A DNA stretch of 32,000 nt, taken from assembly GCA_963704705.1 (NCBI GenBank), contig OY969931.1, positions 1,342,546-1,374,545 of the forward strand, in the 5' to 3' direction. The translations under genes were made by a program, and so were the position numbers. Shown here in pieces: positions 1 through 16,300 of this stretch. The notes below the pieces were generated by a model. That model was given only the letters and a program-made list of their open reading frames with translations, was not told where the DNA came from and did no database searches. Source of the DNA: an uncultured bacterium (lineage in GTDB: Bacteria; Patescibacteriota; Gracilibacteria; UBA1369; PNNO01). The stretch's first letter is position 1, and each line of letters opens with the position of its first letter.

Positions 1-2124
1 GCAGATAAAAAAAAGACGATCGCGAACCTAAAGAAAAAAATTAAGTCAGACACTAAAATATGGATCGCAACCGATGAGGACCGCGAAGGAGAAGCCATTG
101 GCTGGCACTTGTTAAAAGCGCTAAAAGTAGATGAAAAAAAGCATGATGTAAAAAGAATTGTGTTCCATGAAATCACTAAAGAAGCGATTTTAAATTCTAT
201 AAAAGAACCGCGTGAAATTAATGCAGACCTGGTTGATGCGCAGCAGGCCCGAAGAGTTTTGGATCGTTTGGTTGGTTATGAACTTTCACCATTATTATGG
301 AAAAAAATTAGATACGGACTTTCAGCTGGCCGCGTGCAGTCAGTTGCTGTTCGTTTGATTGTTGAACGTGAACGTGAAATTCTCGCTTTCAACCCGGAAG
401 AGTTCTGGAAATTAATTGGAAATTTTATTGGAGACGAGAAAAAGGAATTCGAAGCGCAGCTATCAAAAATCAAAGGAAAAAAACAGGAAGTCACAAATAA
501 AAAAGACGCTGATAAAATTCTAAAAGATTTGGATGGTGCCGATTATAAAGTGGTAAGTGTTGAAGAAAAGAAAGCTAAAAGAAATCCTGCGCCGCCGTTT
601 ATTACGTCTACATTGCAGCAGGAAGCTTCACGCAAACTTGGATTTTCGGTTAAGAAAACAATGATGATTGCGCAGCAGTTGTATGAAGGTGTTGAAACAG
701 CTGAAGGTAATAAAGGTTTGATTACGTATATGAGAACAGACTCTTTTAATTTATCTGCTCAGGCAGTTAAACAGGCTCATAAAGTTATTGTTAATGAATT
801 TGGAAAAGAATATGTTGCTGAAAAACCCCGTATTTATAAAAAAACAAAAGGAGCACAGGAAGCTCACGAAGCGATTCGTCCTACAAATCTTGAACTTTTA
901 CCTGAAGATGTAAAAAAACATTTGAATAAAGATCAGTTCAGATTATATGAATTGATCTGGAAAAGAACTATAGCATGTCAAATGCAGACAGCGATTTTAA
1001 ATCAGGTTAAAGCCCAAATTGAAGCCAACGATTATATATTTGATGCAACGGGCCAGACTATTGATTTTGCCGGATTTATGAAAGTTTATGTGGAAGATGA
1101 AGACGAAGATGACAATCCTGACAATGAAGAAAAAGCTAAAAAGCATGAAAAATTTCTTCCTAAATTAAAAGAAGGAGAAAATCTGGATTGCAAAAAACTT
1201 GATGCAACTCAACACTTCACTCAGCCTCCGCACAGATATACCGAAGCATCGCTTGTTAAAAAACTGGAGTCTGAAGGAATCGGTCGTCCATCAACTTATG
1301 CGCCTACAATCACAACAATTCAGGCTCGCGGATATATTGAAAGAGAAGGCAAAGCCTTAAAACCAACTGATACGGGTATGGTTGTTAACGACTTTTTAGT
1401 GAAATATTTTCCTGACATTGTTGATTATAAATTCACTGCTGAAATGGAAGAAGATCTGGATATGATCGCTCATGGAAAAAAAGAGTGGGTGCCGATTATT
1501 AAAGAATTCTATGATCCATTCCATAAAAATATTAAAGAAAAAGAAAAATCTGTTAATAAAGCTGATGTTGTAAATGAAGAAACCGATGAAATTTGTGATT
1601 TATGCGGTAAGCCAATGGTAATTAAATTGGGAAGATTCGGAAAATTCTTAAGCTGTTCGAATTATCCTGAATGTAAAAACGCGAAACCAATCGAGAAAAA
1701 AGGAGAAGACGGCCAGCCCGAAAAAGATGAATTGGCCATTGATCCTGAACTTGCAAAAAAACTAAAAGATAAAAAATGTGAAAAATGCGGAAGTCCGATG
1801 GAAATAAAACGCGGTAAATACGGTCACTTCCTGGGCTGTACAAATTATCCAAAGTGCAAACATATTCAGCCGATAATAAAATTCAGCGGAGTTAAATGTC
1901 CGCGCTGTAAAAAAGGCCAGCTCGTCGAACGCCATGCGCGCAAAACAGGTAAAGCTTTTTATGGTTGTAATCAGTTTCCTAAATGTAAGTTTGCAACCTG
2001 GGATAAACCGCTTGTGGACAAATGCAAAGACTGTCAGGGAATGCTGGTTGAAAAAAAGGACGGAGAAATTGTTTGTACTGCATGTCAAAAACAAGCTAAA
2101 GAAGGAAAACCGAAAAAGAAATAG
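1..2124 (+). CDS. topA: DNA topoisomerase I (type IA); 5' end lies upstream of the window
   Basis: Frame 1 is open from nt 1 and already encodes the Toprim acidic motif (IWIATDEDREGEAIGWH, nt 58-108), so the ORF-track start at 109 is only an internal TTG. Catalytic-tyrosine motif GLITYMRTDS (Tyr codon 727-729). The C-terminus has four Cys4 topo-I-type zinc ribbons (CDLCG..CSNYPEC, CEKCG..CTNYPKC, CPRC..CNQFPKC, CKDC..CTAC). TAG stop at 2122-2124. Confidence 0.95.
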   Translation, partial: ADKKKTIANLKKKIKSDTKIWIATDEDREGEAIGWHLLKALKVDEKKHDVKRIVFHEITKEAILNSIKEPREINADLVDAQQARRVLDRLVGYELSPLLWKKIRYGLSAGRVQSVAVRLIVEREREILAFNPEEFWKLIGNFIGDEKKEFEAQLSKIKGKKQEVTNKKDADKILKDLDGADYKVVSVEEKKAKRNPAPPFITSTLQQEASRKLGFSVKKTMMIAQQLYEGVETAEGNKGLITYMRTDSFNLSAQAVKQAHKVIVNEFGKEYVAEKPRIYKKTKGAQEAHEAIRPTNLELLPEDVKKHLNKDQFRLYELIWKRTIACQMQTAILNQVKAQIEANDYIFDATGQTIDFAGFMKVYVEDEDEDDNPDNEEKAKKHEKFLPKLKEGENLDCKKLDATQHFTQPPHRYTEASLVKKLESEGIGRPSTYAPTITTIQARGYIEREGKALKPTDTGMVVNDFLVKYFPDIVDYKFTAEMEEDLDMIAHGKKEWVPIIKEFYDPFHKNIKEKEKSVNKADVVNEETDEICDLCGKPMVIKLGRFGKFLSCSNYPECKNAKPIEKKGEDGQPEKDELAIDPELAKKLKDKKCEKCGSPMEIKRGKYGHFLGCTNYPKCKHIQPIIKFSGVKCPRCKKGQLVERHARKTGKAFYGCNQFPKCKFATWDKPLVDKCKDCQGMLVEKKDGEIVCTACQKQAKEGKPKKK

Positions 2125-2152
2125 CAACTATGAAAATATATGCTGAGCCTGG

Positions 2153-2181
2153 TTGATTTTTAAGCTATTTAATGGTAAAAT
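2153..2181 (+). promoter_or_regulatory. Putative sigma70-type promoter with extended -10
   Basis: -35 TTGATT (2153-2158), 17-nt spacer ending in TGg, -10 TAAAAT (2176-2181). It lies 25 nt upstream of the ATG at 2206. Motif match only. Confidence 0.35.
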
Positions 2182-2205
2182 AAAAAGAAGAAAAAATAAA
2201 AAAAT

Positions 2206-4851
2206 ATGGCAAAAAATTTTTGTATCAAAAAATATTATCATCACAGAGCCAAGACTCAACTTAAACAGTGGCTTTTTATAGGCCTGTTTGCGATTTTATT
2301 TTTGGGAATGTTTGCGACTTGTGATGCGCTGGCTGCTTCGTACGTTGATGTTAGCGGAGCATCAAAAAATTTATGTACATTAGGAGCCGGCGTTACATGT
2401 GATGCCGGGACTTTAGATTTTAGTGCTGATCCTCCGATTGATGCAAAACCAAAAGCTCAATTATATTCAACAGGAAAACCGGAAGATTTTGAACTTCGCG
2501 GATGGCTATGGGATACAAACCTTGGGTGGATAAGTTTATACTGCCCTGAATCAGGTTTGAATTTAGGAGTTTCATGCAGACCAAGCAAATCGACCGTGAA
2601 ATATGGAGTTAAAGTAAACTTAAAAAAAGAAATTTTATATGGATGGGCATGGGGAGATAATATTGGATGGATAAGCTTCAACTGCAAAGGCGGAAGAAAT
2701 GAAACATTAGTATGCGGAACAAAAGATTATGAAAGTAATTTGGAAATTGATGTAACAAAAAATCTTGGTAACTTTAGCGGATATGCATGGGCTGACACTG
2801 TGGGCTGGTTTAATTTAAGCGGAATCAGCGGTAAGATTTTGGATATTGTTATGACTGAAAATGCAAGTGAACAAAACTGGGGAGTTTGGACCAAAGGTGA
2901 AATTGAAAATAATACTGCTGAAGGAAAATTTCAAGAAACTCAAAACAGAAAATATTTCCCTGTTGCAGACGGTAACAATGGATATGATTTATTTGTGCAC
3001 GTTGCAACAATTACCGGAACTCCTGTTGTTGATGTTCCGGGGCAGGTTTCAGTGAATATAACAACAACATGGAATGATAATGTAAGTTTGGATCAAACTG
3101 TTGCTGATACCGGTGCTCCGCCCGAAGGACGATACGCGAATGTAAATAAAGTGGGTGCGGCATGGAAACCAGGTATTCCGGGATCCGAACTTGTATATAC
3201 TCCTGATTCAACAACAGGCGGTATTACAAATTCATATCATGGCGTTGCAACTTCGGTTGCGCCAACCGATGGCGGAAACTGTTGGGATGGCGATGGTGAT
3301 GGCTCATGTTACACAGGCGATTCAAATTATTTCTATAAAAACTTTGGAACAGATATTCCGGATCAAAAACTGGAATATGAAGGTGCGACAGTTACAGTAA
3401 CTATTATTCCAACAGGTGAAGTATGGAGCACAACAATCCAACCGCTTGGATATGCGGGTGGAAAATTAATGGAATTTTTACCTTTGGTTGATATTCCGGT
3501 TTTGAATTTTATGCTTCCCGGCAATCCGCCGATAGCAGCGAATATAATCCAGGCAACAAGAAACAAAGAAGATGTGTTCCATATACAAGGTGCTGTAAAT
3601 GCAGCTTTTGGCGGCAATTATGACCTTTCTCTCGAACTTGAACAAGATAATCCTGATGTATACTTTCAATTTATAAAGGATCTAAATACAGTGCCGGTAG
3701 CTGTAAAGCCTATCAAACCATTGAGATTTAAAAATAGTGTTCCATTTGGCGACTATTATTCAATTCCATTTGTTCCGGACATTAAACTTGCAGAAGAAAT
3801 AACCGGAGCAATGCTAAGATCGACAGTAAGATTACCGGATTTTGGAGTTAAATATTTTAACAACGGACTTCCAAGAACCGACGAATCAGTAATCTTAAAT
3901 CAATCAGCTGAAATAGTTAGCGGAAGCGTATTTTCGCCAGGAGCAAAAGAAGTGAGCACAGGAGCAGAAGTTCCTTTGTTTGGAGACACTGCGGTTTATG
4001 AATTGCGCACCCAAATTTTAGAAGATGTAAGCGGAATTATCCGTGGCATTACGCCTGCTGGATTAGGCGGTGACTTTACAATCGAAAACGGTATGAGTGC
4101 TAGTGTCTTGGACGATTATGCTTTGCAGGGCGGACGCGCTTACTACTTTAAAGATCACGATGTTTATCTAGATAGTACGGATCCTTTAACTTCAGTGGTT
4201 AGCGACAGGCCAATCACTTTGATTGTCGATGGCGGAGATCTTTATATAAATACAAATATAGATACCGGAGAAGCATTCGGCTTAATCGCGTTAAAATCAC
4301 GAACTGATGACAGCGAAGCAACCGGTGGCGGCCACATTTATGTTCACAGCGATGTTACAGATATGGTTGATGTTAGCATTTTCTCAGACGGCCCAATGTT
4401 CAGATATACAGATGGAGTATGTTACTACTGGGGTGCAGATGGAAGCGGAAACGATTCTTTGCGCGCACCTAATTTTGTTAATAATGTTGGATGGTGCAGC
4501 TCAGCAGGTACATATAAAGAACCGGTTTCATCATTGCCAAACCAATTCTATTTACGCGGAAATGTTGCATCGTTAAACTGCATCGGATGTTCAGCCGGCA
4601 CAAATCCAACTCGCGGAGATGGCAAACTTTTAGGCGGACCATCAGCGGAAAATTATTCAGACGCACGTTTATATGATTTGAATTACTTTAGTTATTACCG
4701 AGAAAATGCATTATCTCCAGGTACTTTCTCAGGCGCTCAGTCTTATTCTGTTCAGGCAAATTCGACCATTTTGCCTGCAAAGAAAAACCTTCCGGTTTAC
4801 TTTGAATATTCCCCTGCCCCAAGCGACTTGCTAGGGTTTAGGGTGTTTTAG
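2206..4851 (+). CDS. Secreted/surface protein of unknown function with three ~47-aa W-x-W-x-x-N-x-G-W repeats
   Basis: 881-aa ORF with an ATG start. N-terminal hydrophobic segment LFIGLFAILFLGMFATCDALA (signal peptide or anchor). Repeats: GWLWDTNLGWISLYC (2500-2544), GWAWGDNIGWISFNC (2641-2685), GYAWADTVGWFNLSG (2779-2823). I cannot name a family for the remainder. TAG stop. Confidence 0.8.
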   Translation: MAKNFCIKKYYHHRAKTQLKQWLFIGLFAILFLGMFATCDALAASYVDVSGASKNLCTLGAGVTCDAGTLDFSADPPIDAKPKAQLYSTGKPEDFELRGWLWDTNLGWISLYCPESGLNLGVSCRPSKSTVKYGVKVNLKKEILYGWAWGDNIGWISFNCKGGRNETLVCGTKDYESNLEIDVTKNLGNFSGYAWADTVGWFNLSGISGKILDIVMTENASEQNWGVWTKGEIENNTAEGKFQETQNRKYFPVADGNNGYDLFVHVATITGTPVVDVPGQVSVNITTTWNDNVSLDQTVADTGAPPEGRYANVNKVGAAWKPGIPGSELVYTPDSTTGGITNSYHGVATSVAPTDGGNCWDGDGDGSCYTGDSNYFYKNFGTDIPDQKLEYEGATVTVTIIPTGEVWSTTIQPLGYAGGKLMEFLPLVDIPVLNFMLPGNPPIAANIIQATRNKEDVFHIQGAVNAAFGGNYDLSLELEQDNPDVYFQFIKDLNTVPVAVKPIKPLRFKNSVPFGDYYSIPFVPDIKLAEEITGAMLRSTVRLPDFGVKYFNNGLPRTDESVILNQSAEIVSGSVFSPGAKEVSTGAEVPLFGDTAVYELRTQILEDVSGIIRGITPAGLGGDFTIENGMSASVLDDYALQGGRAYYFKDHDVYLDSTDPLTSVVSDRPITLIVDGGDLYINTNIDTGEAFGLIALKSRTDDSEATGGGHIYVHSDVTDMVDVSIFSDGPMFRYTDGVCYYWGADGSGNDSLRAPNFVNNVGWCSSAGTYKEPVSSLPNQFYLRGNVASLNCIGCSAGTNPTRGDGKLLGGPSAENYSDARLYDLNYFSYYRENALSPGTFSGAQSYSVQANSTILPAKKNLPVYFEYSPAPSDLLGFRVF

Positions 4852-4857
4852 ATTTGC

Positions 4858-4927
4858 TTACTTAGTATGTGGGGGGTTACTTAGTATGTGGGGGGTTACT
4901 TAGTATGTGGGGGGTTACTTAGTATGG
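4858..4927. repeat. Tandem array, about 3.7 copies of the 19-bp unit TTACTTAGTATGTGGGGGG (REP-like)
   Basis: Perfect head-to-tail units at 4858-4876, 4877-4895 and 4896-4914, plus a partial unit at 4915-4927. The array begins 7 nt after the stop of the 881-aa gene and ends about 55 nt before the Y1 transposase start. Confidence 0.9.
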
Positions 4928-4982
4928 AAATATTTTAAAAAAATTTTAGAATTTTTTAATAATTGAGGATTATTATTGGTGC

Positions 4983-5405
4983 ATGAGAATTCCACCAATT
5001 TTAAAGAACATGGCCTATCACATTTATGATCGTGGCATTGCAAAAAGAGTAATTTTTAAAATGCCTACAGATTATTTCTTTTTTATGTTAAAAATTGAAA
5101 AATATAAATTGAAATATAATATCGATATAACCAAATATTGTTTAATGCCTAACCATTTTCATTTTCTAATAAATGCAGGGTCAAAACCAAAAAAAATCTC
5201 AACATTTATGAAGTGCATAAAAACTTCATATGCTTATTTTTTTAACAAAAAATACAAACAATCTGGGCATGTATTCCAAGGCACCTTCCATGCCAATCCA
5301 ATAGTTTCAGTTAAACAAATGCATGATACAATCGAATATATTAAAAACAACCCAGTTAAAAAAGGCTTAATTGATAAAGCTGAAGATTGGCCATACTCAG
5401 GATAA
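4983..5405 (+). CDS. Y1 (HUH) transposase, IS200-like / REP-associated tyrosine transposase (RAYT) family
   Basis: 140 aa. HUH motif in CLMPNHFHFLI, catalytic-Tyr motif TIEYIKNNPVKKGL, C-terminal EDWPYSG. This mirrors the E. coli RayT pattern as I recall it (LPEHMHCIW / YIYINPVKHG / DWPFSTF). A GAGGA lies 13 nt upstream of the ATG. TAA stop. Confidence 0.85.
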   Translation: MRIPPILKNMAYHIYDRGIAKRVIFKMPTDYFFFMLKIEKYKLKYNIDITKYCLMPNHFHFLINAGSKPKKISTFMKCIKTSYAYFFNKKYKQSGHVFQGTFHANPIVSVKQMHDTIEYIKNNPVKKGLIDKAEDWPYSG

Positions 5406-5428
5406 TTGTTTTTCTTGATAGATCATAG

Positions 5429-5459
5429 TTACTAAGTAACCTACCCCTTACTAAGTAAC
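5429..5459. repeat. REP-like pair: two direct copies of TTACTAAGTAAC separated by CTACCCC
   Basis: Copies at 5429-5440 and 5448-5459, starting 23 nt after the transposase stop. The core GTTACT-A-AGTAAC is itself a 13-nt palindrome. Its central base (A versus T) and the C-run versus G-run give it polarity. Confidence 0.75.
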
Positions 5460-5461
5460 TC

Positions 5462-5490
5462 TTGGAGATAATTTCCCTTTCTGCTATATT
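5462..5490 (+). promoter_or_regulatory. Putative promoter with extended -10 for the PMM/PGM gene
   Basis: -35 TTGGAG (5462-5467), 17-nt spacer ending in TGc, -10 TATATT (5485-5490). Motif match only, and the -35 is weak. Confidence 0.3.
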
Positions 5491-5519
5491 AAAACTCCAA
5501 AATTTAACGCATTTAATTG

Positions 5520-6935
5520 ATGAAAGTTAATCCTAATATTTTTCGTGCATATGATATTAGAGGTATTGCACAAGCTACTGATAAATATCCAGATGTTGAT
5601 CTTACTGAAGAAACAGCATATTTAATTGGAAAAGGAGCAGGAACATATATCCAAAAAATAACAAAGCCAAATGCCAATCTTGTTGTCGGCCGGGATAACC
5701 GTCTTCATTCACCAAAACTTCAACAAGCATTCATTAAAGGCTTGCTCGAAGTTGGCTGCGATGTTACAGACATCGACATTTCACCTTCTCCAATGCTCTA
5801 TTATGCGGTTTGCAAATATGAGTTTGATGGGGGCGCGAACATTACGGCTTCACACAATCCAAAAGAATACAATGGAATAAAATTGGTTAGTCGGAATGCA
5901 CATTCTGTTTGTGGCGAAGATCTCCAGAAGGTTTTGAAAATTATTGAAGATGAAGATTATGCAAAAGGCGCTGAAGGTGAATATAAAGAGTTGAAAATTT
6001 TTGATGTTTATAAAAATGATTTAGCTTCTAAAGTTAAAATCGAGAAACCCCTTAAGGTTGTTGTTGATGCGGGGAATGGTACTGCAGGTGCCTTTGCTCC
6101 CGATTTACTGCGAACTTTAGGATGCGAAGTTACTGAGCTTTACTGTGAACTTGATGGCAATTTTCCGAATCACGAAGCCAATCCTGAAGAGTATGAAAAC
6201 ATGAAGGACCTGATTGCAAAAGTTAAAGAGGAGCATGCTGATTTGGGTTTGGGTTTTGATGGCGACGGTGATCGCGTTGGTGTTGTTGATGAAACCGGCC
6301 ATCATTATTCTGCTGATTTTTTATTGATGCTGCTTGCGCGGGATTTGCTTACACGTCAGCCAGGAGCAAAAATAGTTTTTGATGTAAAAGTTACAACCTC
6401 TTTAATCGAAGATATAAAAAAGCATGGAGGAGAGCCGATAATGTGCAAAACCGGACACTCTTTTATTGAAAGCAAAATGAAAGAAATTGGCGCGCCTTTA
6501 GCAGGAGAAGTAAGCGGGCATTTATTTTTTGCAGAAAATTATTATGGTTTTGATGATGCATTTTTGGGCGCTGCAAAGTTGCTCGAAATTTTATCAAAAA
6601 GTTCTGTGCCCTTTTCACGATTATTTGACGATGTCCCAAAAACCTATGCGACACCTGAATTTAAAGCGCATACTCCGGACGATAAAAAATTTAAAATCGT
6701 GCGCGAACTCACTGATTATTTTACAAAAAATTACGATTGTATCACTTTAGACGGAGTTCGTGTAAATTTCACTGACCGTGCTTGGGGCGCTATTCGCTGC
6801 TCAAACACATCGCCAAATTTAACTTTAAGATTTGAAGCTGATAGCAAAGAGAAGCTTTGTGAAATTCAAAAAAATATGGTGGAACAATTGCGCAAATACC
6901 CTGAGGTAAGCCTTGATTGGTATAAAGAATGTTAA
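5520..6935 (+). CDS. Phosphomannomutase/phosphoglucomutase (alpha-D-phosphohexomutase, ManB/AlgC-like)
   Basis: Active-site loop ITASHNPKEYNGIKL (Ser codon 5850-5852), metal-binding GFDGDGDR, sugar-binding GEVSGH, phosphate-binding RCSNTSPNLTLRFEA. The ORF track starts at TTG 5517; the adjacent ATG at 5520 is the more likely start. TAA stop. Confidence 0.9.
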   Translation: MKVNPNIFRAYDIRGIAQATDKYPDVDLTEETAYLIGKGAGTYIQKITKPNANLVVGRDNRLHSPKLQQAFIKGLLEVGCDVTDIDISPSPMLYYAVCKYEFDGGANITASHNPKEYNGIKLVSRNAHSVCGEDLQKVLKIIEDEDYAKGAEGEYKELKIFDVYKNDLASKVKIEKPLKVVVDAGNGTAGAFAPDLLRTLGCEVTELYCELDGNFPNHEANPEEYENMKDLIAKVKEEHADLGLGFDGDGDRVGVVDETGHHYSADFLLMLLARDLLTRQPGAKIVFDVKVTTSLIEDIKKHGGEPIMCKTGHSFIESKMKEIGAPLAGEVSGHLFFAENYYGFDDAFLGAAKLLEILSKSSVPFSRLFDDVPKTYATPEFKAHTPDDKKFKIVRELTDYFTKNYDCITLDGVRVNFTDRAWGAIRCSNTSPNLTLRFEADSKEKLCEIQKNMVEQLRKYPEVSLDWYKEC

Positions 6936-6938
6936 TTC

Positions 6939-6990
6939 ATATACTAAGTAAGTACCCCCTTACTTAGTATATACCCAGCTACTAAGTAAC
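6939..6990. repeat. REP-like hairpin plus a third core copy
   Basis: Perfect 14-bp stem, ATATACTAAGTAAG (6939-6952) pairing with CTTACTTAGTATAT (6959-6972), around loop TACCCC. A further CTACTAAGTAAC at 6979-6990 sits one base before the ATG at 6992. Confidence 0.85.
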
Positions 6991-6991
6991 T

Positions 6992-8611
6992 ATGCAACTA
7001 ATTTACAAACACAAATACTGGCGTTTGCTTGAGATGGTTCCAGGGCTTCTTGCCTGGGGGGCGCTGCTTATACCTGTTGTTGTGGCGATTTATCACCCAA
7101 TTTTAATTGCTGTTTTGGCTATTGTTTATGCGTTGCTTTGGCTTTTCAGATCAATTCGATTGAGCATAAATTTGTATAGGGGTTATTGGAGAACTCAGGA
7201 TGCAATGAAGGTGAACTGGAATTTTCTTCTCGATCTGGTTGAACATCCAGGAAAAATCGACCAGGCGGTTAGTGAAACTGACCTTAGCAAGCCTCTTTTA
7301 AGGCCACAAAAAATCTTCAATCTTGAACTTAAAAATCTAAAAAACAGATTAACGTGGCTAAATCAAAATGACCAAGAGCTTAAGCCCTCACAGATTCACC
7401 ATGCGATTTTAATAGTGACTTATAAAGAGTCGTATGAGCTGGTGAGGGAATCCGTTAAGTCATATGCGGAAAGTTTTTATCCTTATAAAAAAATGGTTTT
7501 GGTACTTGGAGGAGAGGAAGGCGACAAAGAAAATTTCGCGCAAATCTCAGAAAAAATCGAGAAAGAATTCGGAGACAAATTCAGCGCAATAATTAAGACG
7601 GTACATCCAAAAGGCATGCCAGGAGAAATCCCTGGCAAAAGCGCAAATGCAACATTTGCCGGTAAGGAATTAAAGCGATATCTCGACCACCATCACATCC
7701 CTTACGAGCATGTTATTTTATCAAATTTTGATGCTGACACTGTTGCGCATCCTGCTTATTTTAGTGAGCTTACTTTTAAATATTTGGTTACTAAAAATCG
7801 AACACAAAAAGCGTATCAGCCAACACACATGTTTCATAATAATATTTGGGATGTGCCTGTGATGATTCGTATGGTTGCTCTTTCTTGCACTTTCTGGCGC
7901 ATGTCAGAGGCACTTGATAAACATAAATATAAAAGTTTTTCTTCGCGTTCAATGGGCTTTCAAACAGTTATTGATACAAATTATTGGGATCCTTCTATTA
8001 TTCCTGAGGACTCGCGTCAGTTCTGGACAGCATTTTTGAAATACAACGGAAAGCATACTGTTAGCTGGATTTATACGCCTGTTTATATGGATGCTGTTTT
8101 GTCAGATAGTTATCTTGAGACTTTTAAAAGTCAGTATGTGCAATTAAGGCGCTGGGCATGGGGTGTTATGGATTTCCCGTTCATGGCGATCAACTTGGCA
8201 AGACATCCAAAAATAAAACTCAGCGAAAAAATATATAGAATTTTTTACTTTTTAGAGAATGCGTTTTTCTGGGCAACCGGTCCTTTGATTATTATGTTCG
8301 CGGGTTGGCTTCCTTCTATGATGAACGCTGATTTCCGTAATTCGGTTCTTGCATATAATTTACCAAATATAACCAGCCAGATTTTAACTGTTGCCGGAAT
8401 AGGTATAATCATGTGCGGAATTATAAGTCTTGTGATCGTACCCCGTCAGGTAAAACGCAGTCCGTGGGTACGAATTTCTCTATTTTTCCAGTGGCTTCTG
8501 GTGCCGATAACTTCAATTTTCCTTAGTGCGATTCCTGCTCTCGACGCTCAAACCCGCCTTCTTTTCGGCAAGCACCTCGAATACAAGGTTACGAAAAAAG
8601 CGAGGAAGTAA
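6992..8611 (+). CDS. Membrane-integrated processive family-2 glycosyltransferase (cellulose/chitin-synthase-like)
   Basis: 539 aa. N- and C-terminal hydrophobic helices flank a GT-A core with LIVTYKESYE, SNFDADT (DxD-like), EDSRQFW and the processive-synthase signature QLRRWAWG (8141-8164). TAA stop. Confidence 0.85.
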   Translation: MQLIYKHKYWRLLEMVPGLLAWGALLIPVVVAIYHPILIAVLAIVYALLWLFRSIRLSINLYRGYWRTQDAMKVNWNFLLDLVEHPGKIDQAVSETDLSKPLLRPQKIFNLELKNLKNRLTWLNQNDQELKPSQIHHAILIVTYKESYELVRESVKSYAESFYPYKKMVLVLGGEEGDKENFAQISEKIEKEFGDKFSAIIKTVHPKGMPGEIPGKSANATFAGKELKRYLDHHHIPYEHVILSNFDADTVAHPAYFSELTFKYLVTKNRTQKAYQPTHMFHNNIWDVPVMIRMVALSCTFWRMSEALDKHKYKSFSSRSMGFQTVIDTNYWDPSIIPEDSRQFWTAFLKYNGKHTVSWIYTPVYMDAVLSDSYLETFKSQYVQLRRWAWGVMDFPFMAINLARHPKIKLSEKIYRIFYFLENAFFWATGPLIIMFAGWLPSMMNADFRNSVLAYNLPNITSQILTVAGIGIIMCGIISLVIVPRQVKRSPWVRISLFFQWLLVPITSIFLSAIPALDAQTRLLFGKHLEYKVTKKARK

Positions 8612-8615
8612 TTTT

Positions 8616-8649
8616 ATATACTAAGTAACCCCCACCTTACTTAGTATAT
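8616..8649. repeat. REP-like hairpin between convergent genes (possible bidirectional terminator or RNA-stability element)
   Basis: Perfect 13-bp stem, ATATACTAAGTAA (8616-8628) pairing with TTACTTAGTATAT (8637-8649), around loop CCCCCACC. The right arm touches the nadM stop codon (8649-8651). No T-tract follows on either strand. Confidence 0.8.
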
Positions 8650-9155
8650 CAAGCAATCATTTTCAGGCGCTCCACGCCTTTCCAGCTTTTTATGAGCTCG
8701 GCTACTTTTGGGTGCACATCGTCTTCCCACGACGCGTCGTCTTTGAGCATTTTTTCGCGCACGGAAGTTGCGCTTACACCCTCTACCATTTTAACGTCAG
8801 CAATTTTGTATTTACCGTAAACCTCGTAAAGCTGGCGCACAATCGGTGAGCCTGTGTAAACTTTATAAACCGGAGGAATATATTGATCAACGTGAGTCGT
8901 CCACAAAAAATAATTCATAACATTGCGAATCGGAATTATCACGTAGCGATCACGCGCGATTCTGCTTGCTTCAAGTGCGGCTTCGATCATCTGAAAACGT
9001 TCGCCGGCAGTAAAGGGATTCGCAAGTTCGTGATTTTCTTCTGCGCTCCCGATCACAATTATCAAACGGTCTTCAACTTCCAGAGCGCGTTTAATCACGT
9101 CTAAATGTCCAAGATGAAAAGGCTGAAATCTACCTACAAAAAGCGCTTGTTTCAT
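8649..9155 (-). CDS. nadM: Nicotinamide-nucleotide adenylyltransferase, archaeal NadM type
   Basis: 168 aa. Nucleotidyltransferase motif GRFQPFHLGH near the N-terminus and SATSVR near the C-terminus. This is a stand-alone short form with no Nudix fusion. The ATG at 9155 overlaps the nadE TGA (ATGA, 9152-9155). Confidence 0.9.
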   Translation of the reverse strand: MKQALFVGRFQPFHLGHLDVIKRALEVEDRLIIVIGSAEENHELANPFTAGERFQMIEAALEASRIARDRYVIIPIRNVMNYFLWTTHVDQYIPPVYKVYTGSPIVRQLYEVYGKYKIADVKMVEGVSATSVREKMLKDDASWEDDVHPKVAELIKSWKGVERLKMIA

Positions 9156-9904
9156 GATTTCGGGATTATATAAGGGACGTCTAATTTATGTTTGTTTGCG
9201 CGCATACGTTTGAACAATGAACGCACTAATGAAGCGCTCATTCCTTTGCTTACAAGTTCTTCTTCTCCAAGGTCTGCCTGATATAAAATATTGTCGATTT
9301 CTTCATAATCCGCACCAAGCTCCTGTTCGTCTGTCTGTCCCTCAAAAAGTTCAGCTGATGGCGGCTTCTCGATTATTTCTTTTGGAAGCTGCAAAAATTC
9401 AGCAAGCTCACGTACCTCAGTTTTGTATAATGATCCTAATGGCAAAATGTCAGCTGCAAGATCACCATATTTTGTTCCGTATCCGAGCATTAATTCGGAT
9501 TTGTTAGATGTGCCGACTACAAGCGCGCGGTGAGTATTTGCAAAATTATAAAGAATATTTGCGCGCACCCGTGCCTTTGTATTTGTGTAAGCGATTTCAT
9601 TTTGCTTCCATGGCACTTCCGAATAGCAAACCATAAAATTATTGATTGGAATTTTGTGAAAATCCACTCCTAAAAATTGAGCAAGTCCAACTGCATGGTC
9701 GATATTTACAGAAGAAGTCAGGCCGCGTTCCGGCATGATTAAAGCGTTAACATAAGCCGGGCCGAGTGTGTCGACTGCGATTTTAAGGGTTACCGCAGAG
9801 TCGAGTCCGCCGGATAAACCTAAGACCGCATTTCGAAAACCATTTTCTTCAAAATAGTTTTTTAAGCCTCCTCCTAATTTTTCGTAAATTTCTTCTATAT
9901 ACAT
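9152..9904 (-). CDS. nadE: NH3-dependent NAD+ synthetase
   Basis: PP-loop motif GLSGGLDSAV. The ORF is open up to a TTG at 9940, but that start would overlap smpB by 32 nt. The first ATG (9904, MYIEEIYEKL...) lies 4 nt after the smpB stop and leaves about 31 aa before the SGG motif, as in short NadE proteins. TGA stop at 9152-9154. Confidence 0.9.
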   Translation of the reverse strand: MYIEEIYEKLGGGLKNYFEENGFRNAVLGLSGGLDSAVTLKIAVDTLGPAYVNALIMPERGLTSSVNIDHAVGLAQFLGVDFHKIPINNFMVCYSEVPWKQNEIAYTNTKARVRANILYNFANTHRALVVGTSNKSELMLGYGTKYGDLAADILPLGSLYKTEVRELAEFLQLPKEIIEKPPSAELFEGQTDEQELGADYEEIDNILYQADLGEEELVSKGMSASLVRSLFKRMRANKHKLDVPYIIPKS

Positions 9905-9908
9905 GTGG

Positions 9909-10355
9909 TTATTTTCGTTTAAGTACTCGGGCAATGTCAAGATTTTGAGCTTTCTTTTTCAAATCCGCCCGTTTGTCGTAGAGTTTTTTTCCTTTAACAA
10001 GTGCGATTTTTAATTTAAGGAGCCCGCCTTTTGTATAAAGTTCAAGGGGTACGCAAGTTACTCCCTGCTCGTTTAATTTGGTTTCGATTTTGCTGATTTC
10101 TTTTTCATTAAGAAGAAGTTTTCTGTTTCTGTATGGATCTGCGTTATTTTTTCCTGCCATTTTATATGGCGAGATATGCGCTTTTTCAAGCCAAATTTCG
10201 TGCTTTGAACTTATGGAAATATAGCTGCCTTTTAAGTTAAGATTTCCTGTTCGGCAAGATTTTACTTCAGGGCCGATAAGCTGAATTCCCGCCTCAAAAC
10301 TTTCGAGAATTTCATAGTCGTGGAATGCCTTTTTGTTTTTTGAGAGAGTTGTCAT
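9909..10355 (-). CDS. smpB: SsrA-binding protein SmpB
   Basis: 148 aa starting at ATG 10355: MTTLSKNKKAFHDYEILESFEAGIQLIGPEVKSCR...NRKLLLNEKEI...KGKKLYDKR, colinear with canonical SmpB. The 345-aa ORF in the track (9909-10946) is this gene plus a spurious antisense read-through into the high-GC gene. Confidence 0.92.
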   Translation of the reverse strand: MTTLSKNKKAFHDYEILESFEAGIQLIGPEVKSCRTGNLNLKGSYISISSKHEIWLEKAHISPYKMAGKNNADPYRNRKLLLNEKEISKIETKLNEQGVTCVPLELYTKGGLLKLKIALVKGKKLYDKRADLKKKAQNLDIARVLKRK

Positions 10356-10465
10356 ATACGGTTGTAAGTTTAGGTGTTTTTGAAGATTTAAATCAAGAGG
10401 AATATTGGGGTTGTAAAATATGTCACTTATGGCATAATAGCAATCCCAGCTTTGCTTGGAACAAG

Positions 10466-10489
10466 CAATGAGCAAAGCTTTGCTCATTG
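10466..10489. promoter_or_regulatory. Perfect 24-bp palindrome in the divergent smpB / high-GC-gene intergenic region
   Basis: CAATGAGCAAAG|CTTTGCTCATTG is exactly self-complementary. It is flanked by a second small hairpin, TTGCTTG-gaa-CAAGCAA (10452-10468), and by a duplicated AGCTTTGCT (10448-10456 and 10477-10485). Function unknown (operator, or a recombination scar). Confidence 0.4.
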
Positions 10490-10541
10490 AAAAAATACGG
10501 CCAAAAAACCAAAACGAAGGAAGAAAAAAGGAGCGATTTAG

Positions 10542-13202
<2,661 letters not shown>

Positions 13203-13247
13203 GCCGCGGATCAGCTGCTCAGGATAAGCTGACCACTGATATATTTT

Positions 13248-13295
13248 GCCCGGCTTGCCGTAGTTCTCAAACTATTGCAAGACCGGGCTTTTTTT
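13248..13295 (+). terminator. Rho-independent terminator of the high-GC gene
   Basis: GCCCGGCTTGC (13248-13258) pairs with GCAAGaCCGGGC (13277-13288, one bulged A). An inner TAGTT/AACTA stem closes on loop CTCA. A run of seven T follows (13289-13295). Confidence 0.8.
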
Positions 13296-13307
13296 AAATT
13301 TTAACAC

Positions 13308-13336
13308 TTTACCCAAAATCGTTTTTCTGGTATAAT
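13308..13336 (+). promoter_or_regulatory. Putative promoter with extended -10 for the giant-gene operon
   Basis: -35 TTTACC (13308-13313), 17-nt spacer ending in TGg, perfect -10 TATAAT (13331-13336). It lies 36 nt upstream of the ATG at 13373. Motif match only. Confidence 0.4.
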
Positions 13337-13372
13337 AATAATGAAACAAAAATAAAAAGTTATAACTTCTCC

Positions 13373-16300
13373 ATGCGGACTTCAAATAATTGGCTTGAAA
13401 AGCGAAAAAACAGAGAACGTTTACTTGCCAGAACCCAAAACATCGCGATTGGCAGTTTAATAGCGGCTATAACCATTGGCCCGCTTATTTATTTTGCCGC
13501 AGTCGCAGTTCCAATCGAAATAAGAGAAGCGCGAAATGTTCAATTGACTGAAGAATCAGCGGCTACTCCTGAGATTGCAATTGAAATTCCGGCTACTCCG
13601 GAAATATCACTAAGTGAGAAACCAATTAAATTTCCTGAGCCCGTTAAAGAAATTAAAAAAATAGAAAATCCGAAAGTTGAATTTAAATTGTCAGATCTTC
13701 CTAAAGAAAACCAACAAAAAGAAATTGTTTCAACAGGTAAATCAGAATCGGCTGAAGCAAAATTTATAGATACTCTTAAAACAGAATTTAAAGATCAGGA
13801 GAAAGATGTCCAGATTAAAGTAACTAACAAACAAGTTGATGGGCAAAATGAAAAATTGGTAGTTATGGAGAATCTCGATATTGATGACGGACCACGACAA
13901 ATCCGAAAAACAGAAGATGCTGACACAGTTGCCAGAGCAGCGTTGAGAAAATATTTAAAAACAAATCCAAAAGAAGTTGATTTTGATATATACACCGATA
14001 CAAGCAAACTTACAAATTCAAAGAAAACATATCAGCTCGTTGTTTCTGATATAAAAACAAACAACGGAAAATGGTATGTAACATTCGAGCAATACAAAAA
14101 TGCACTTCCTGTTTTTGATGGAAATATAAAAATGATTTTTACGGAAAGAAAAAATTTAATTGCAATAACTGACAATATCAGAACTGACTTCCCGGAAATT
14201 GAGGACTTCTCAATCACAAATTCAGAAGCTTCAGGAGCCATACAAGATGTTTTCACGCAATGGGATGAAGGCGTAGATAAAATTGGATTTGTAAACAAGG
14301 GATATTATAAAAACAAACCAGCTTTCAAAATTGAATTGGAAAGTCATAATCCATTAGGAAATTTTGAAGTTCTTGTGGACGGATCAAACGGTGATATTGA
14401 GAATGTTAAGGGAGATATAAGGCTTGCTGATGAAACAGGTTATACAACAGAAGAGCTTGAAGGACTGCGTGCTGGAAATCCTTTACCTTACAACCCCGTA
14501 GTTGATAAAGTGGACCCCGTTCTTTACGATGTAGGTGAACGCAAACCTGAAGAAGAAAATCAAGTTTATCCTTCAGTTGAAGAACTGGATCAAATAAAAA
14601 TAAATGCAGAAAATACAGCGCTTCAACAGGAATTAATTGCAAATCCAGTAAATCCTGAAGCTCCACAACTGGAATTACAGAGAAGCGAAATTTTCCAAAA
14701 AATAATTGCACCGGTTTATGCCGAAGAGAAATTCCAGGTTCCTGAACAGCAAATTACAGGGCCTTCAATCGGAGTAATTCAGGAATTTTCTGCTACAGGC
14801 GATGCTGCGGCAACTCCTGATGTAGGGGCCACTCTTGAACCTGACATTGTAATTCTTGATACAATTTTCAGTCAGGTTTTAGGAAAAATTTATCCTCAAA
14901 CTCCGGATCAGGAACCAATAATTACACCTTTTGCCAACGCTTATACATTTTTCAGCCAGAAACAAAATATTACAGATGAAGGAGGATATTTTGAAAATAA
15001 AGATTTGGACTGGTACAGCGTATATCTCGATGGTCCATATGTGACTGTTTATGATGATGACGCCAGTTCGGATGCGGAAATCAAAGATCGCACGCCTGAA
15101 GACCCTTTTGTTTGGGATGAAAACAGTGCGAGTCTCGCAGCAATAAATGCGTTCTATCATACAAATGAAATGCATAAATATTTTGCTGATAAATTTAATT
15201 TCGATACAAATAAAAAAATTCCGGTTACTGTAAATTCCGAACTTGTTGATCAATATTTAAATGGTTGCGGTGCATGGTTTGATAATTCTGATAAATCCAT
15301 TGAAATGGGTCGCGGCGGTACCGATACCTGCCCTGAAGATTTGAATTATGCACTTTCTAGTGATTTTGTTTATCATGAATATACACACTTTGTAGTTGAA
15401 GAAATAACACATCTTCCAAATATTACAGGGGCTGAATCCGCAGCAATGGGTGAAGGACTTGCGGATTATTTTGCTGCATCTGCTAATAATGACCCTGTAT
15501 GGGGTGATGTGGTTGCCCCTAATGATACCAGGAATTTAAAAAATACTTTAAATTATAATTATGATCTTAATGGTGAATCTCATCATGATGGACAAATTTT
15601 TGCAGGAGCATTATGGGATTTAAGAACTTTGATTGGCCCTATTGAAGCTGACAAATTGGTATTTAACACTTTATATCAAGATAGACTGCATTTTGAAACC
15701 TTCATGTATGGAATGCTTATAGAAGATGATGATAACAATGATTTTTCTGATGGGACACCTCACATGCTTGAGATTTTAGCTGCATTTGAAAATCATGGAA
15801 TCGGACCAGGAATAGCTAACTTTGATGGGCTTCCTGTTGATCCTGAAGCCTGGACAGATTTGCTAGGTGAAGAAGCGCCTCAGGGACAGGAAGATTCAAT
15901 ATTAAACGCTATAAGTGCAGGGTGCGAGGGCTATGATGATGGCACTTCAATAGTAATCCCTGATAATGTCACCTGTACTTTTACTGGATCCGGAAGTCGT
16001 TCAATAATTTATTTAGCGGGTGGTGCTGATCTTTATATCGGAGATTCATCTACTTACGGGATTCTCTCAACTAGCGGCGATACCAGTATTTATGGAACAA
16101 CAGCAATATCATCATTAAGAATCGGATGGTATAGTGGTGTTTATGGCCGCTTAACAGTTGGCGATGAATTGTTCTTAATTAATGGCGGTTGGCTGTATTC
16201 GGGATATGACGGATCAAATTTTGCAAATGCAAATACATATCTTCATGTTACAGGCAGTACGCAAATATATAAACAATCCACCAGTTATACTTCAAGCAAC

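Follow-up and report, generated by a model that had tools for sequence, protein, structure and literature searches.

We examined a 32-kb stretch of contig OY969931.1 (hereafter the window) from an uncultured bacterium of the Gracilibacteria, in which an original prediction had placed a REP-associated tyrosine transposase (RAYT) between inverted arrays of a repetitive extragenic palindrome (REP). The locus comprises a gene for a 140-aa, core-only Y1 protein of the HUH endonuclease/transposase type and four arrays of short palindromes, c1 to c4, arranged as follows.

4858..4926, unstranded: array c1, 3.6 head-to-tail 19-nt units of TTACTTAGTAT+GTGGGGGG, ending 56 nt before the ATG
4927..4982, + strand: AT-rich leader of 56 nt from array c1 to the ATG, with a promoter-like TGGAAA-16-TAGAAT at 4925-4952
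4983..5405, + strand: RAYT-like Y1 HUH endonuclease/transposase gene, core-only, 140 aa, from the open reading frame (ORF) call and motifs
5428..5459, unstranded: array c2, two head-to-tail units, GTTACTAAGTAAC-CTACCCC-TTACTAAGTAAC, in opposite polarity to c1
6941..6990, unstranded: array c3, three units, ATACTAAGTAA, TTACTTAGTAT and CTACTAAGTAA, oriented ->, <-, ->, in the gap that separates the phosphomannomutase gene from that of a 539-aa membrane protein
8618..8648, unstranded: array c4, inverted doublet ATACTAAGTAA-CCCCCACC-TTACTTAGTAT, oriented ->, <-, with a 13-bp stem and an 8-nt C-rich loop
4944..8614, + strand: 3.7-kb block of the RAYT, phosphomannomutase and 539-aa membrane-protein genes, bounded by c1 and c4

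The ORF at 4983..5405 on the + strand carries the three motifs that had been predicted for it: PNHFHF with the HUH residues His58 and His60, Y119-IKNNPVKKG with the catalytic Tyr119 followed by Asn123-Pro124, and the C-terminal DWPYSG. The start at 4983 is taken to be right because all homologues in the family alignment open with MR-P. The protein matches the Pfam family Y1_Tnp ('Transposase IS200 like') with an E-value of 5.4e-12, and no tnpB gene was found among the ORFs of the window. The leader at 4927..4982 is conserved in the closest homologue neighbourhood (L002), and a second promoter-like site, for the next gene, adjoins array c2 at 5463-5490; these promoter-like hexamers are pattern matches only, from a consensus scan of the window that showed no enrichment over shuffled sequence.

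Tandem 19-mers had been predicted upstream of the gene at about 55 nt and in 3.7 copies. Tandem Repeats Finder reports array c1 with a period of 19, 3.6 copies, 100% matches and a score of 138 (consensus TTACTTAGTATGTGGGGGG); its spacer is G-rich on the + strand, so that its units point away from the Y1 gene. The two predicted downstream copies of opposite polarity were also found, with TTACTAAGTAA at 5429-5439 and 5448-5458 around the C-rich spacer CCTACCCC in an array that begins 23 nt past the stop codon. Compared with c1, the central core base of c2 is complemented and the spacer is C-rich instead of G-rich, and an inverted-repeat comparison gives 87% complementarity between c1 and c2 over 30 nt, in agreement with the proposal that inverted copies of one repeat family bracket the gene. 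Arrays c3 and c4, both overlooked by the original prediction, share the 19-nt period and C-rich spacers, and c4 lies where the 539-aa gene and a cytidylyltransferase-like gene converge. The units are 11-13-nt near-palindromes with an odd centre, and on the G-rich strand their spacers read GTGGGGGG, GGGGTAGG, GGGGGTAC, CTGGGTAT and GGTGGGGG.

The core TACTWAGTA occurs exactly 11 times in 32 kb where 0.19 occurrences are expected, and none of 100 shuffles reached 11; the repeats are therefore not the product of chance. All 11 units are intergenic and fall in four consecutive gaps between 4858 and 8648, with neighbouring pairs exactly 19 nt apart. No TACTWAGTA was found outside 4858-8648 in the 32 kb. 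The region from 13.4 to 32 kb is taken up almost wholly by three giant ORFs in succession, at 13373-23326 (3317 aa), 23334-27464 (1376 aa) and 27471 to beyond 32000, separated by 7-nt gaps; these probably encode large surface proteins. They occupy the right 60% of the window and leave hardly any intergenic DNA able to host repeats, so the absence of cores there says little. Confinement of the motif to about 4 kb had been named in advance as an outcome adverse to the prediction, and within the window the motif does keep to 3.8 kb, while relatives carry copies 3.7-7.3 kb from the gene and a nearly identical doublet occurs in another organism, as described below.

Folded as single-stranded DNA (ssDNA), the inverted doublets of c3 and c4 form strong hairpins with C/G-rich loops of 6-8 nt. 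The c3 doublet (6939-6972), made by the first two units, has a perfect 14-bp stem at -9.7/-10.5 kcal/mol (z -4.3; none of 200 shuffles folded as well), and the c4 doublet (8616-8649) has a perfect 13-bp stem at -8.1/-8.3 kcal/mol (z -6.6/-5.9). Arrays c3 and c4 fit the geometry of REPINs, in which two inverted REPs with a short spacer make one long hairpin, but c1 and c2 do not. A CRISPR-like array was ruled out by geometry, as the period is 19 nt and the 8-nt 'spacers' are themselves conserved. No Rfam match at gathering score, tRNA or tmRNA was found in the window, and no intrinsic terminator was found at the arrays; the terminator scan gave four matches elsewhere against a shuffle mean of 3.2. 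Array c1 also breaks de Bruijn assemblies: two independent short-read contigs from the same organism, L001 and L225, are 100% identical to the window and both end inside c1 (at position 1 and at 5341-5369, respectively).

Classification of the Y1 protein

Y1 proteins are shared between RAYTs and IS200/IS605 insertion sequences (IS), and the two were distinguished here by model scores, motifs and structure. The NCBIfam model for REP-associated tyrosine transposases (REP_Tyr_transpos, NF047646) scores the protein at 79.2 bits, 0.8 bit below its cutoff of 80, and the IS200 model (NF033573) scores it at 21.3 bits against a cutoff of 55. The RAYT model is matched by 22 of 22 aligned relatives, with a best E-value of 3.9e-24. 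When the sequence was compared with solved structures, 4ER8 (E. coli TnpA-REP) was the sole significant match (E 2e-5; ISDra2 TnpA, E 1.5). An AlphaFold model built on the family alignment has a predicted local distance difference test (pLDDT) value of 94 and a predicted template modelling score (pTM) of 0.86, and a fold search with this model again placed 4ER8 first (E 6e-9; template modelling (TM) score 0.82; root-mean-square deviation 2.5 Å over 140 columns), whereas the transposases of IS608, ISDra2 and IS200 reach TM scores of about 0.55-0.62.

The motifs point in the same direction. P56, N57, H58, H60, Y119 and N123 are invariant across the 22 relatives, and P124 is present in at least 90%. 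In Table 1 of Quentin 2018 (PMC6006769), class 2, the RAYT-like class, is defined by HUH with Y-x3-NP and IS200 by Y-x3-Q, and the IS200 HUH signature DH[VI]H stands against NHFH in the 140-aa family. On the clear ranking of the NCBIfam scores, the Y-x3-NP motif and the closeness of a confident model to 4ER8, the protein is a RAYT-type or class-2 TnpA-Y1 and not an IS200 TnpA, as had been proposed.

The combination NHFH / FQ / Y-x3-NP is the pattern of subclass 2.1; it is shown likewise by the longer relatives (about 220-240 aa), which carry YIHLNP and have 'WSS' in the tail. By motifs, the nearest described relatives appear to be subclass 2.1, which corresponds to Bertels group 1 and to the TIRYT proteins. 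The wider superfamily comprises 21,246 representative clusters at E <=1e-3; the compact 140-aa clade is small, since only 8 representatives reach 1e-30. Close homologues of the 140-aa protein are labelled Patescibacteria.

Inheritance of the gene and its pairing with the palindromes

Nine lineages were compared, namely the window and homologue neighbourhoods at 84, 53, 51, 49, 49, 48, 42 and 35% protein identity. At 84% identity (L002/L003) the neighbourhood is collinear throughout, with arrays in the same four gaps; at 53% (L097/L098) the Y1 gene still lies beside the phosphomannomutase and 539-aa genes, and at 51% (L220) it still follows the topoisomerase I gene. The ratio of nonsynonymous to synonymous substitution rates (dN/dS) between the window and L002 is 0.09 (dS 0.75), compared with 0.08 for a housekeeping neighbour. 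Because the gene keeps its place beside phosphomannomutase at 84% and 53% identity and has a dN/dS of 0.09, it behaves like a vertically inherited host gene, and it is under purifying selection. Each protein cluster was seen on one contig or two, and the homologue matches include no paralogue from the source contig. To the single-copy, domesticated gene of the original prediction this would add vertical inheritance, and we infer a single copy per genome. More distant homologues (L093, L096, L219, L221 and L223) have unrelated neighbours, which could reflect either ancient movement or mere loss of synteny.

Short near-palindromes lie on both sides of the gene in all nine lineages, between 19 and 70 nt before the ATG and from overlap with the stop codon to 23 nt after it. 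Within the 140-aa clade these positions narrow to 49-57 nt before the ATG, a distance that is kept throughout the clade, and 2-23 nt after the stop. The sequence of the palindrome differs by lineage:

Window and L002: TTACTWAGTAA, period 19 nt
L097: ATTAC-N3-GTAAT, period 18 nt
L096: TTTACYSGGTAAA
L093: ACCGAGTAAG / CTTACTCGGT
L219: GTACCCGGTA
L220: GTACTWAGTAC, period 17 nt
L221: CACCCTWAGGGTG
L223: CACGAGGTTTAACCTCGTG

Core and period are common to all arrays of a genome, the period being 19 nt for the window and for L002, 18 nt for L097 and 17 nt for L220. Strictly inverted polarity of the flanks can be made out clearly in three of the nine lineages, the window, L002 and L096. As a control, the longest word shared in either orientation by the upstream and downstream flanks was determined for each gene of these loci. 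The Y1 gene shares a word of 10-16 nt in 9 of 9 loci, and the median for 84 other genes of the same loci is 7 nt; seven other genes share a word of at least 11 nt, and five of the seven sit between arrays of the same family. Because the palindrome changes with the protein from lineage to lineage while its dyad symmetry stays, the repeats are tied to the Y1 gene; such joint change is the accepted mark of a cognate repeat/RAYT pair.

The arrays turn over by whole units. Array c1 has four units in the window and two in L002, a whole-unit indel, and c4 has two units in the window and three in L002. Array c2 is conserved in L002, L004 and L005; c3 keeps its site and unit number in L002 and its site, with lineage-specific units, in L097. 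Since the c1 units of the window are identical, spacers included, and each genome has one core and one period, the copies have been homogenised or renewed within each lineage. Conservation of the core was dropped as a separate argument: identity to L002 is already 76-84% over the full length of the array gaps, which makes it weak.

Further copies of the palindromes were found away from the gene in several relatives. L097 has them at 8594-8638, in the gap between the SmpB and NAD synthase genes, and at about 4930-4990; L220 has one at 2385-2405, 3.7 kb from the gene; L096 has one at 15172, 6 kb from the gene and between convergent gene ends; and L002 has a decayed two-unit array at 2659-2690, 7.3 kb from the gene. 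The metagenome contig L101 carries ATATACTAAGTAACCCACCACTTACTTAGTATAT, nearly identical to c4, between a pilin-like gene and an unrelated 553-aa gene. An origin of L101 from the source genome was ruled out, as its 552-aa protein has no homologue on the source contig, and it belongs to another organism.

A search of 185,579 species genomes, the source genome not among them, for TACTWAGTA-N10-TACTWAGTA gave 87 matches against roughly 70 estimated for random sequence, with no match from a clear relative of the source. The same search of metagenomes gave at least 120 matches, and among the matches listed one, L101, is a true family member. The layout GCTTACTAAGTAA-N8-TTACTTAGTAAGC accounts for 20 of the 87 species-genome matches and for 20 of 120 among the metagenome matches listed. 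In the high-GC Acidimicrobiia/Actinomycetota this twin palindrome lies between a gene with TetR_N and TetR_C_1 domains and a DUF6326 membrane-protein gene (L064 2115-2160, L175 3356-3400, L099 9474-9515, L058 4579-4620 and about 40 other scan loci). No Y1 gene was found near the Actinomycetota twin palindromes, and to judge from its sequence and setting the element looks like a conserved operator.

The array sites also coincide with rearrangement junctions. By tblastx, window 4944-8614 is collinear with L097 9962-13601 and L098 5897-9536, and window 1-4701 and 8649-13528 are inverted and on swapped sides in L097/L098; the inversion breakpoints therefore map to 4702-4943 and 8615-8648, at c1 and c4. 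The 881-aa gene upstream of c1 is absent in L220, with the junction exactly at the upstream array. Each of these is a single event, so that a link between the arrays and rearrangement is no more than suggestive.

Several features of the relatives stand beside these results. In L223, whose 227-aa protein is 35% identical, the cognate 19-nt palindrome occurs three times. One copy (9960-9978) precedes the gene, a second (10178-10196) lies within the coding sequence with its polarity inverted, and the third (10673-10691) spans the stop codon (…FHEV*). The second copy encodes LHEVKPRE, within an insertion not found in the 140-aa proteins, and resembles the in-gene REP insertions reported for subclass 2.4. 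In L221, a tRNA-like sequence (…GGTTCGATTCCCTGTGGCGCTACCA) at 10505-10580 follows the 152-aa relative and its palindromes at a distance of about 50 nt. L002 has a second array at 2224-2270, TTGCTTGGCAA / TTGCCAGGCAA / TTGCCCGGCAA, with an 18-nt period and G-rich spacers, in a gap beside pheS, at a distance of 7.7 kb from the Y1 gene. Its design is that of the other arrays, with both arms altered by A>G and T>C changes, and no second Y1 gene was found in the 20 kb of L002 that carries it.

The remainder of the window is of low G+C, about 0.36-0.44 outside one stretch, and has a gene set of the small-genome type, with topoisomerase I, phosphomannomutase, NAD synthase, SmpB and several giant ORFs. 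The exceptional stretch, 11000-13000, has a G+C of 0.56-0.60 against about 0.38 elsewhere and lies inside the ORF 10542..13202, which encodes 886 aa with a weak DUF4215 match; no rRNA, tRNA or Rfam match was found there, and homologues of the ORF occupy the syntenic place in L097 and L098. The 881-aa gene (2206-4851) has an N-terminal signal-like segment and the 539-aa gene (6992-8611) is multi-pass membrane-like. Neither matches a Pfam family, and both are conserved in L002, L097 and L098.

Proposed working and rival explanations

The gene is flanked on both sides by one inverted family of extragenic palindromes, which is the architecture of a REPtron. Taken together, the data suggest that the locus is probably a miniature system of the REPtron or TIRtron type, in which a vertically inherited, core-only RAYT-class Y1 HUH enzyme is paired with short palindromes of its own. 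On single-stranded DNA, for example the lagging-strand template, adjacent 11-13-nt units (TTACTWAGTAA with an 8-nt G/C-rich spacer) would pair with each other. The inverted doublets of c3 and c4 would give perfect 13-14-bp stems with 6-8-nt loops, and the head-to-tail units of c1 and c2 would give stems of 4-7 plus 4-5 bp around a central mismatch. The enzyme would bind the hairpin, Tyr119 would cut nearby ssDNA with the aid of a metal held by His58, His60 and Asn123, and the resulting 5'-phosphotyrosine end would be rejoined to another 3'-OH. Through repeated cycles whole 19-nt units could be gained or lost and doublets seeded in nearby intergenic gaps, so that copies would stay alike within a genome and diverge between genomes, with an occasional rearrangement, of which the 3.7-kb inversion between c1 and c4 would be an example. 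We infer the single-stranded state, the position of cleavage and a benefit to the host, and the enzyme, rather than slippage or recombination, would presumably be the generator of the array changes.

A number of points weigh against this scheme. Binding and cleavage are carried over by analogy from E. coli TnpA-REP, which binds the REP hairpin as a monomer, cuts ssDNA and can transfer strands (PMC3479197). The head-to-tail arrays c1 and c2 fold weakly (-4 to -6.6 kcal/mol), and a unit on its own is too short and too rich in A+T for a stable hairpin. A constant 5' GT[AG]G tag, which is essential for binding and cleavage by E. coli TnpA-REP (PMC3479197), was sought in the spacers; it is present in some and not in others, and never at a fixed position. 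At the positions given by Quentin et al. (PMC6006769) for the GTAG contacts, E. coli W94, Q95, E100, H101 and R104 correspond to F98, Q99, A104, N105 and V108 here, so that Gln99 alone is kept. Perfect tandem units can arise from replication slippage without an enzyme, and subclass 2.1, which the relatives resemble, was reported to lack REPs (Quentin 2018, PMC6006769). The same core and 19-bp period recur in the apparent double-stranded operator of Actinomycetota. In about 150 kb of related sequence the copies lie within about 7 kb of the gene, which fits a local role equally well.

Some of these points may be connected. The 140-aa protein stops where E. coli TnpA-REP has DWPFS (residue 135 of 165) and lacks the C-terminal tail, which in E. 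coli is inhibitory to cleavage, contributes Glu161 to the metal site and makes contact with the GTAG guide (PMC3479197). Lack of the tail and of the GTAG contacts fits the absence of a GTAG tag and implies that the cut site is chosen in another way; atypical tag-less structures have been described for subclasses 2.6 and 3 (Quentin 2018, PMC6006769). The REPtron of the original prediction thus holds as regards the flanking inverted family and departs from the canonical form in the tag, in four of the five GTAG contacts and in the tail.

The proximity of the copies to the gene raises a variant of this scheme that we regard as quite unlikely, in which Patescibacteria with very small genomes keep a core-only Y1 enzyme for a site-specific task close to its gene and not for the genome-wide spread of repeats. 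The enzyme would act on the phased 17-19-nt arrays to recombine or invert the adjacent cassette or to control its genes. That cassette would be the phosphomannomutase and the 539-aa membrane protein, possibly related to the cell surface, and the protein would be a domesticated HUH recombinase or switch with iteron-like sites, of which the 3.7-kb inversion would be a footprint.

Other explanations do without an enzyme acting on hairpins. The units may be double-stranded operator or iteron sites for a dimeric protein, either a regulator or the RAYT-like protein itself, that controls the RAYT, phosphomannomutase and 539-aa genes. Their form, dyad-symmetric TTAC-N3-GTAA at a fixed 17-19-bp phase, would suit such a role, as would their staying local to the Y1 gene and the position of c1 and c2 against promoter-like -35 hexamers in regions conserved in L002. 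In the nine loci, however, the arrays are not accompanied by a regulator gene, and the Y1 gene, the sole shared neighbour, encodes a protein with no recognisable DNA-binding domain beyond the HUH core. Two of the sites, array c4 and the copy in L096, separate converging genes and have no promoter; close relatives differ in copy number (2 to 4 at a site), and the promoter scan was not enriched over shuffles. We consider operator sites unlikely, but keep them in play because Actinomycetota use the same core and 19-bp phase, as GCTTACTAAGTAA-N8-TTACTTAGTAAGC in the divergent TetR/DUF6326 gap, in an operator-like setting. It is rather improbable that the arrays are maintained chiefly for what they do in transcripts or at the ends of genes, whether as transcript-end hairpins, as stabilisers of mRNA or as transcription insulators, with the Y1 gene at most their historical generator. 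Several features of the arrays would accommodate such a role: they lie in very short gaps directly after the stops of same-strand or convergent genes, their inverted doublets are strong hairpins on both strands, and REPs elsewhere are mostly downstream of coding regions and have been proposed as RNA elements (PMC3733652). Yet the arrays are not followed by T-runs, the four terminator-like matches all lie elsewhere, no Rfam family matches, and c1, whose units fold weakly, lies upstream of the RAYT promoter region and not where a terminator is needed. Such a role would also leave unexplained why the palindrome tracks the Y1 protein in nine lineages.

Slippage would account for the perfect 3.6-copy array and its whole-unit variation, both typical of the process, and the presence of arrays in the same four gaps of L002 could be simple inheritance. 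If the arrays were slippage minisatellites or remnants of old duplications, their nearness to the Y1 gene would be an inherited accident. Slippage cannot, however, create inverted copies or new arrays in other gaps, and it explains neither the core and period shared by all arrays of one genome nor the lineage-specific cores on both flanks in nine lineages with differing neighbourhoods; we regard it as very improbable. An ordinary IS200/IS605 insertion sequence, with the gene and its flanking hairpins as one self-copying mobile unit, is barely credible. The Pfam family name and the occurrence of gene and palindromes in unrelated neighbourhoods (L093, L096, L219, L221 and L223) would fit an insertion sequence, but the IS200 model score is far under its cutoff (21.3 against 55 bits), the motifs are Y-x3-NP and NHFH in place of Y-x3-Q and DH[VI]H, and tnpB is lacking. 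Moreover, the flanks are inverted arrays and not same-strand left and right end hairpins, the position is conserved at 84% and 53% identity with a dN/dS of 0.09, and the protein is found on one or two contigs only, with no source-contig paralogue among the matches. This reading is largely refuted.

The miniature REPtron- or TIRtron-type system, if correct, bears on how such partnerships persist. RAYT and REP are the best example of a transposase domesticated with its non-autonomous repeats, and nearly all characterised cases come from Proteobacteria and other large-genome bacteria. A conserved core-only RAYT under purifying selection in genomes of about 1.4 Mb suggests that a pared-down form of the partnership can persist under extreme streamlining. 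A 140-aa enzyme and a substrate of about 30 nt would make a minimal test case for DNA recognition with neither GTAG guide nor inhibitory tail, and for local rearrangements. The practical value is modest, in that the arrays break short-read assemblies and mark rearrangement junctions.

Comparison with known systems

The REPtron of E. coli (TnpA-REP/RayT/YafM, 4ER8; Ton-Hoang 2012; Messing 2012, PMC3479197) is the best structural and sequence match. The two systems have in common the HUH, Tyr and Asn residues of the active site, extragenic palindromes of their own in inverted orientation with some inverted doublets, and an apparently low-copy, vertically inherited gene. E. coli TnpA-REP has 165 aa, whereas the protein described here has 140 aa, lacks the tail and keeps one of five GTAG contacts. 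The E. coli REPs are imperfect hairpins of about 35 nt in several hundred copies, in contrast to 11-13-nt units in a 19-nt phase with no constant GT[AG]G.

By motif, the TIRYT/TIRtron group (Di Nocera 2013, PMC3733652) is closer; it corresponds to subclass 2.1 (Quentin 2018, PMC6006769) and Bertels group 1 (PMC5581495). TIRYT genes are flanked by inverted repeats unrelated to GTAG REPs, often as dimers or clusters, moderately abundant and many with GGGGWSAS (PMC3733652), and subclass 2.1 proteins have about 240 aa, a C-terminal SS motif and a helix-turn-helix-like domain. Shared with this group are NH[YF]H / FQ / Y-x3-NP, the YIHLNP motif and 'SS' tail of the longer relatives (about 220-240 aa), and the inverted flanks, in which the G-run and core GGGGTTAC fit GGGGWSAS at 7 of 8 positions. 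Unlike subclass 2.1, the 140-aa protein has no C-terminal helix-turn-helix-like extension, and its tyrosine motif YIKNNP is nearer the subclass 2.4 pattern YIxNNP. The terminal inverted repeats (TIRs) of that group are long, whereas the units here are short, self-complementary and set in phased arrays, and the G-run is absent in L097 and L219.

With the REPIN-RAYT systems of Pseudomonas and enterobacteria (PMC3116915, PMC5581495) the locus shares inverted-doublet hairpins (c3 and c4), a flanked domesticated gene, repeats that are alike within a genome and different between genomes, and vertical inheritance. REPINs are about 60-110 nt long and dispersed in tens to hundreds per genome; the doublets here measure about 30 nt, many of the units follow one another head-to-tail, and the copies observed were local ones. 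The Y1 HUH fold and short hairpins beside the gene are common to the TnpA proteins of IS200/IS605 elements (IS608 and ISDra2), which differ in Y-x3-Q for Y-x3-NP and in a TM score of about 0.6, and from which the locus is set apart by the lack of tnpB, the conserved position and no sign of multiple copies. TTAC, the outer arm of the window units, is also the target tetranucleotide of IS608, which we note as a curiosity. IS608 finds a tetranucleotide target through base pairing (PMC5934647).

The genomic setting differs as well. In the survey of Quentin 2018, non-IS TnpA-Y1 genes were found mainly in large genomes and not at all in Mollicutes, and the host genome here is about 1.4 Mb. No literature description of RAYT or REPIN in Patescibacteria was found among the matches listed; one paper that names both 'REP-associated tyrosine transposase' and 'Candidate Phyla Radiation' concerns a K07491 gene in a Pacearchaeales (archaeal) genome. 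The REP/RAYT kind of system is itself known, and what appears to be new is a clade of compact RAYTs that lack the tail, occur in very small genomes and are accompanied by unusually short, untagged and phased arrays.

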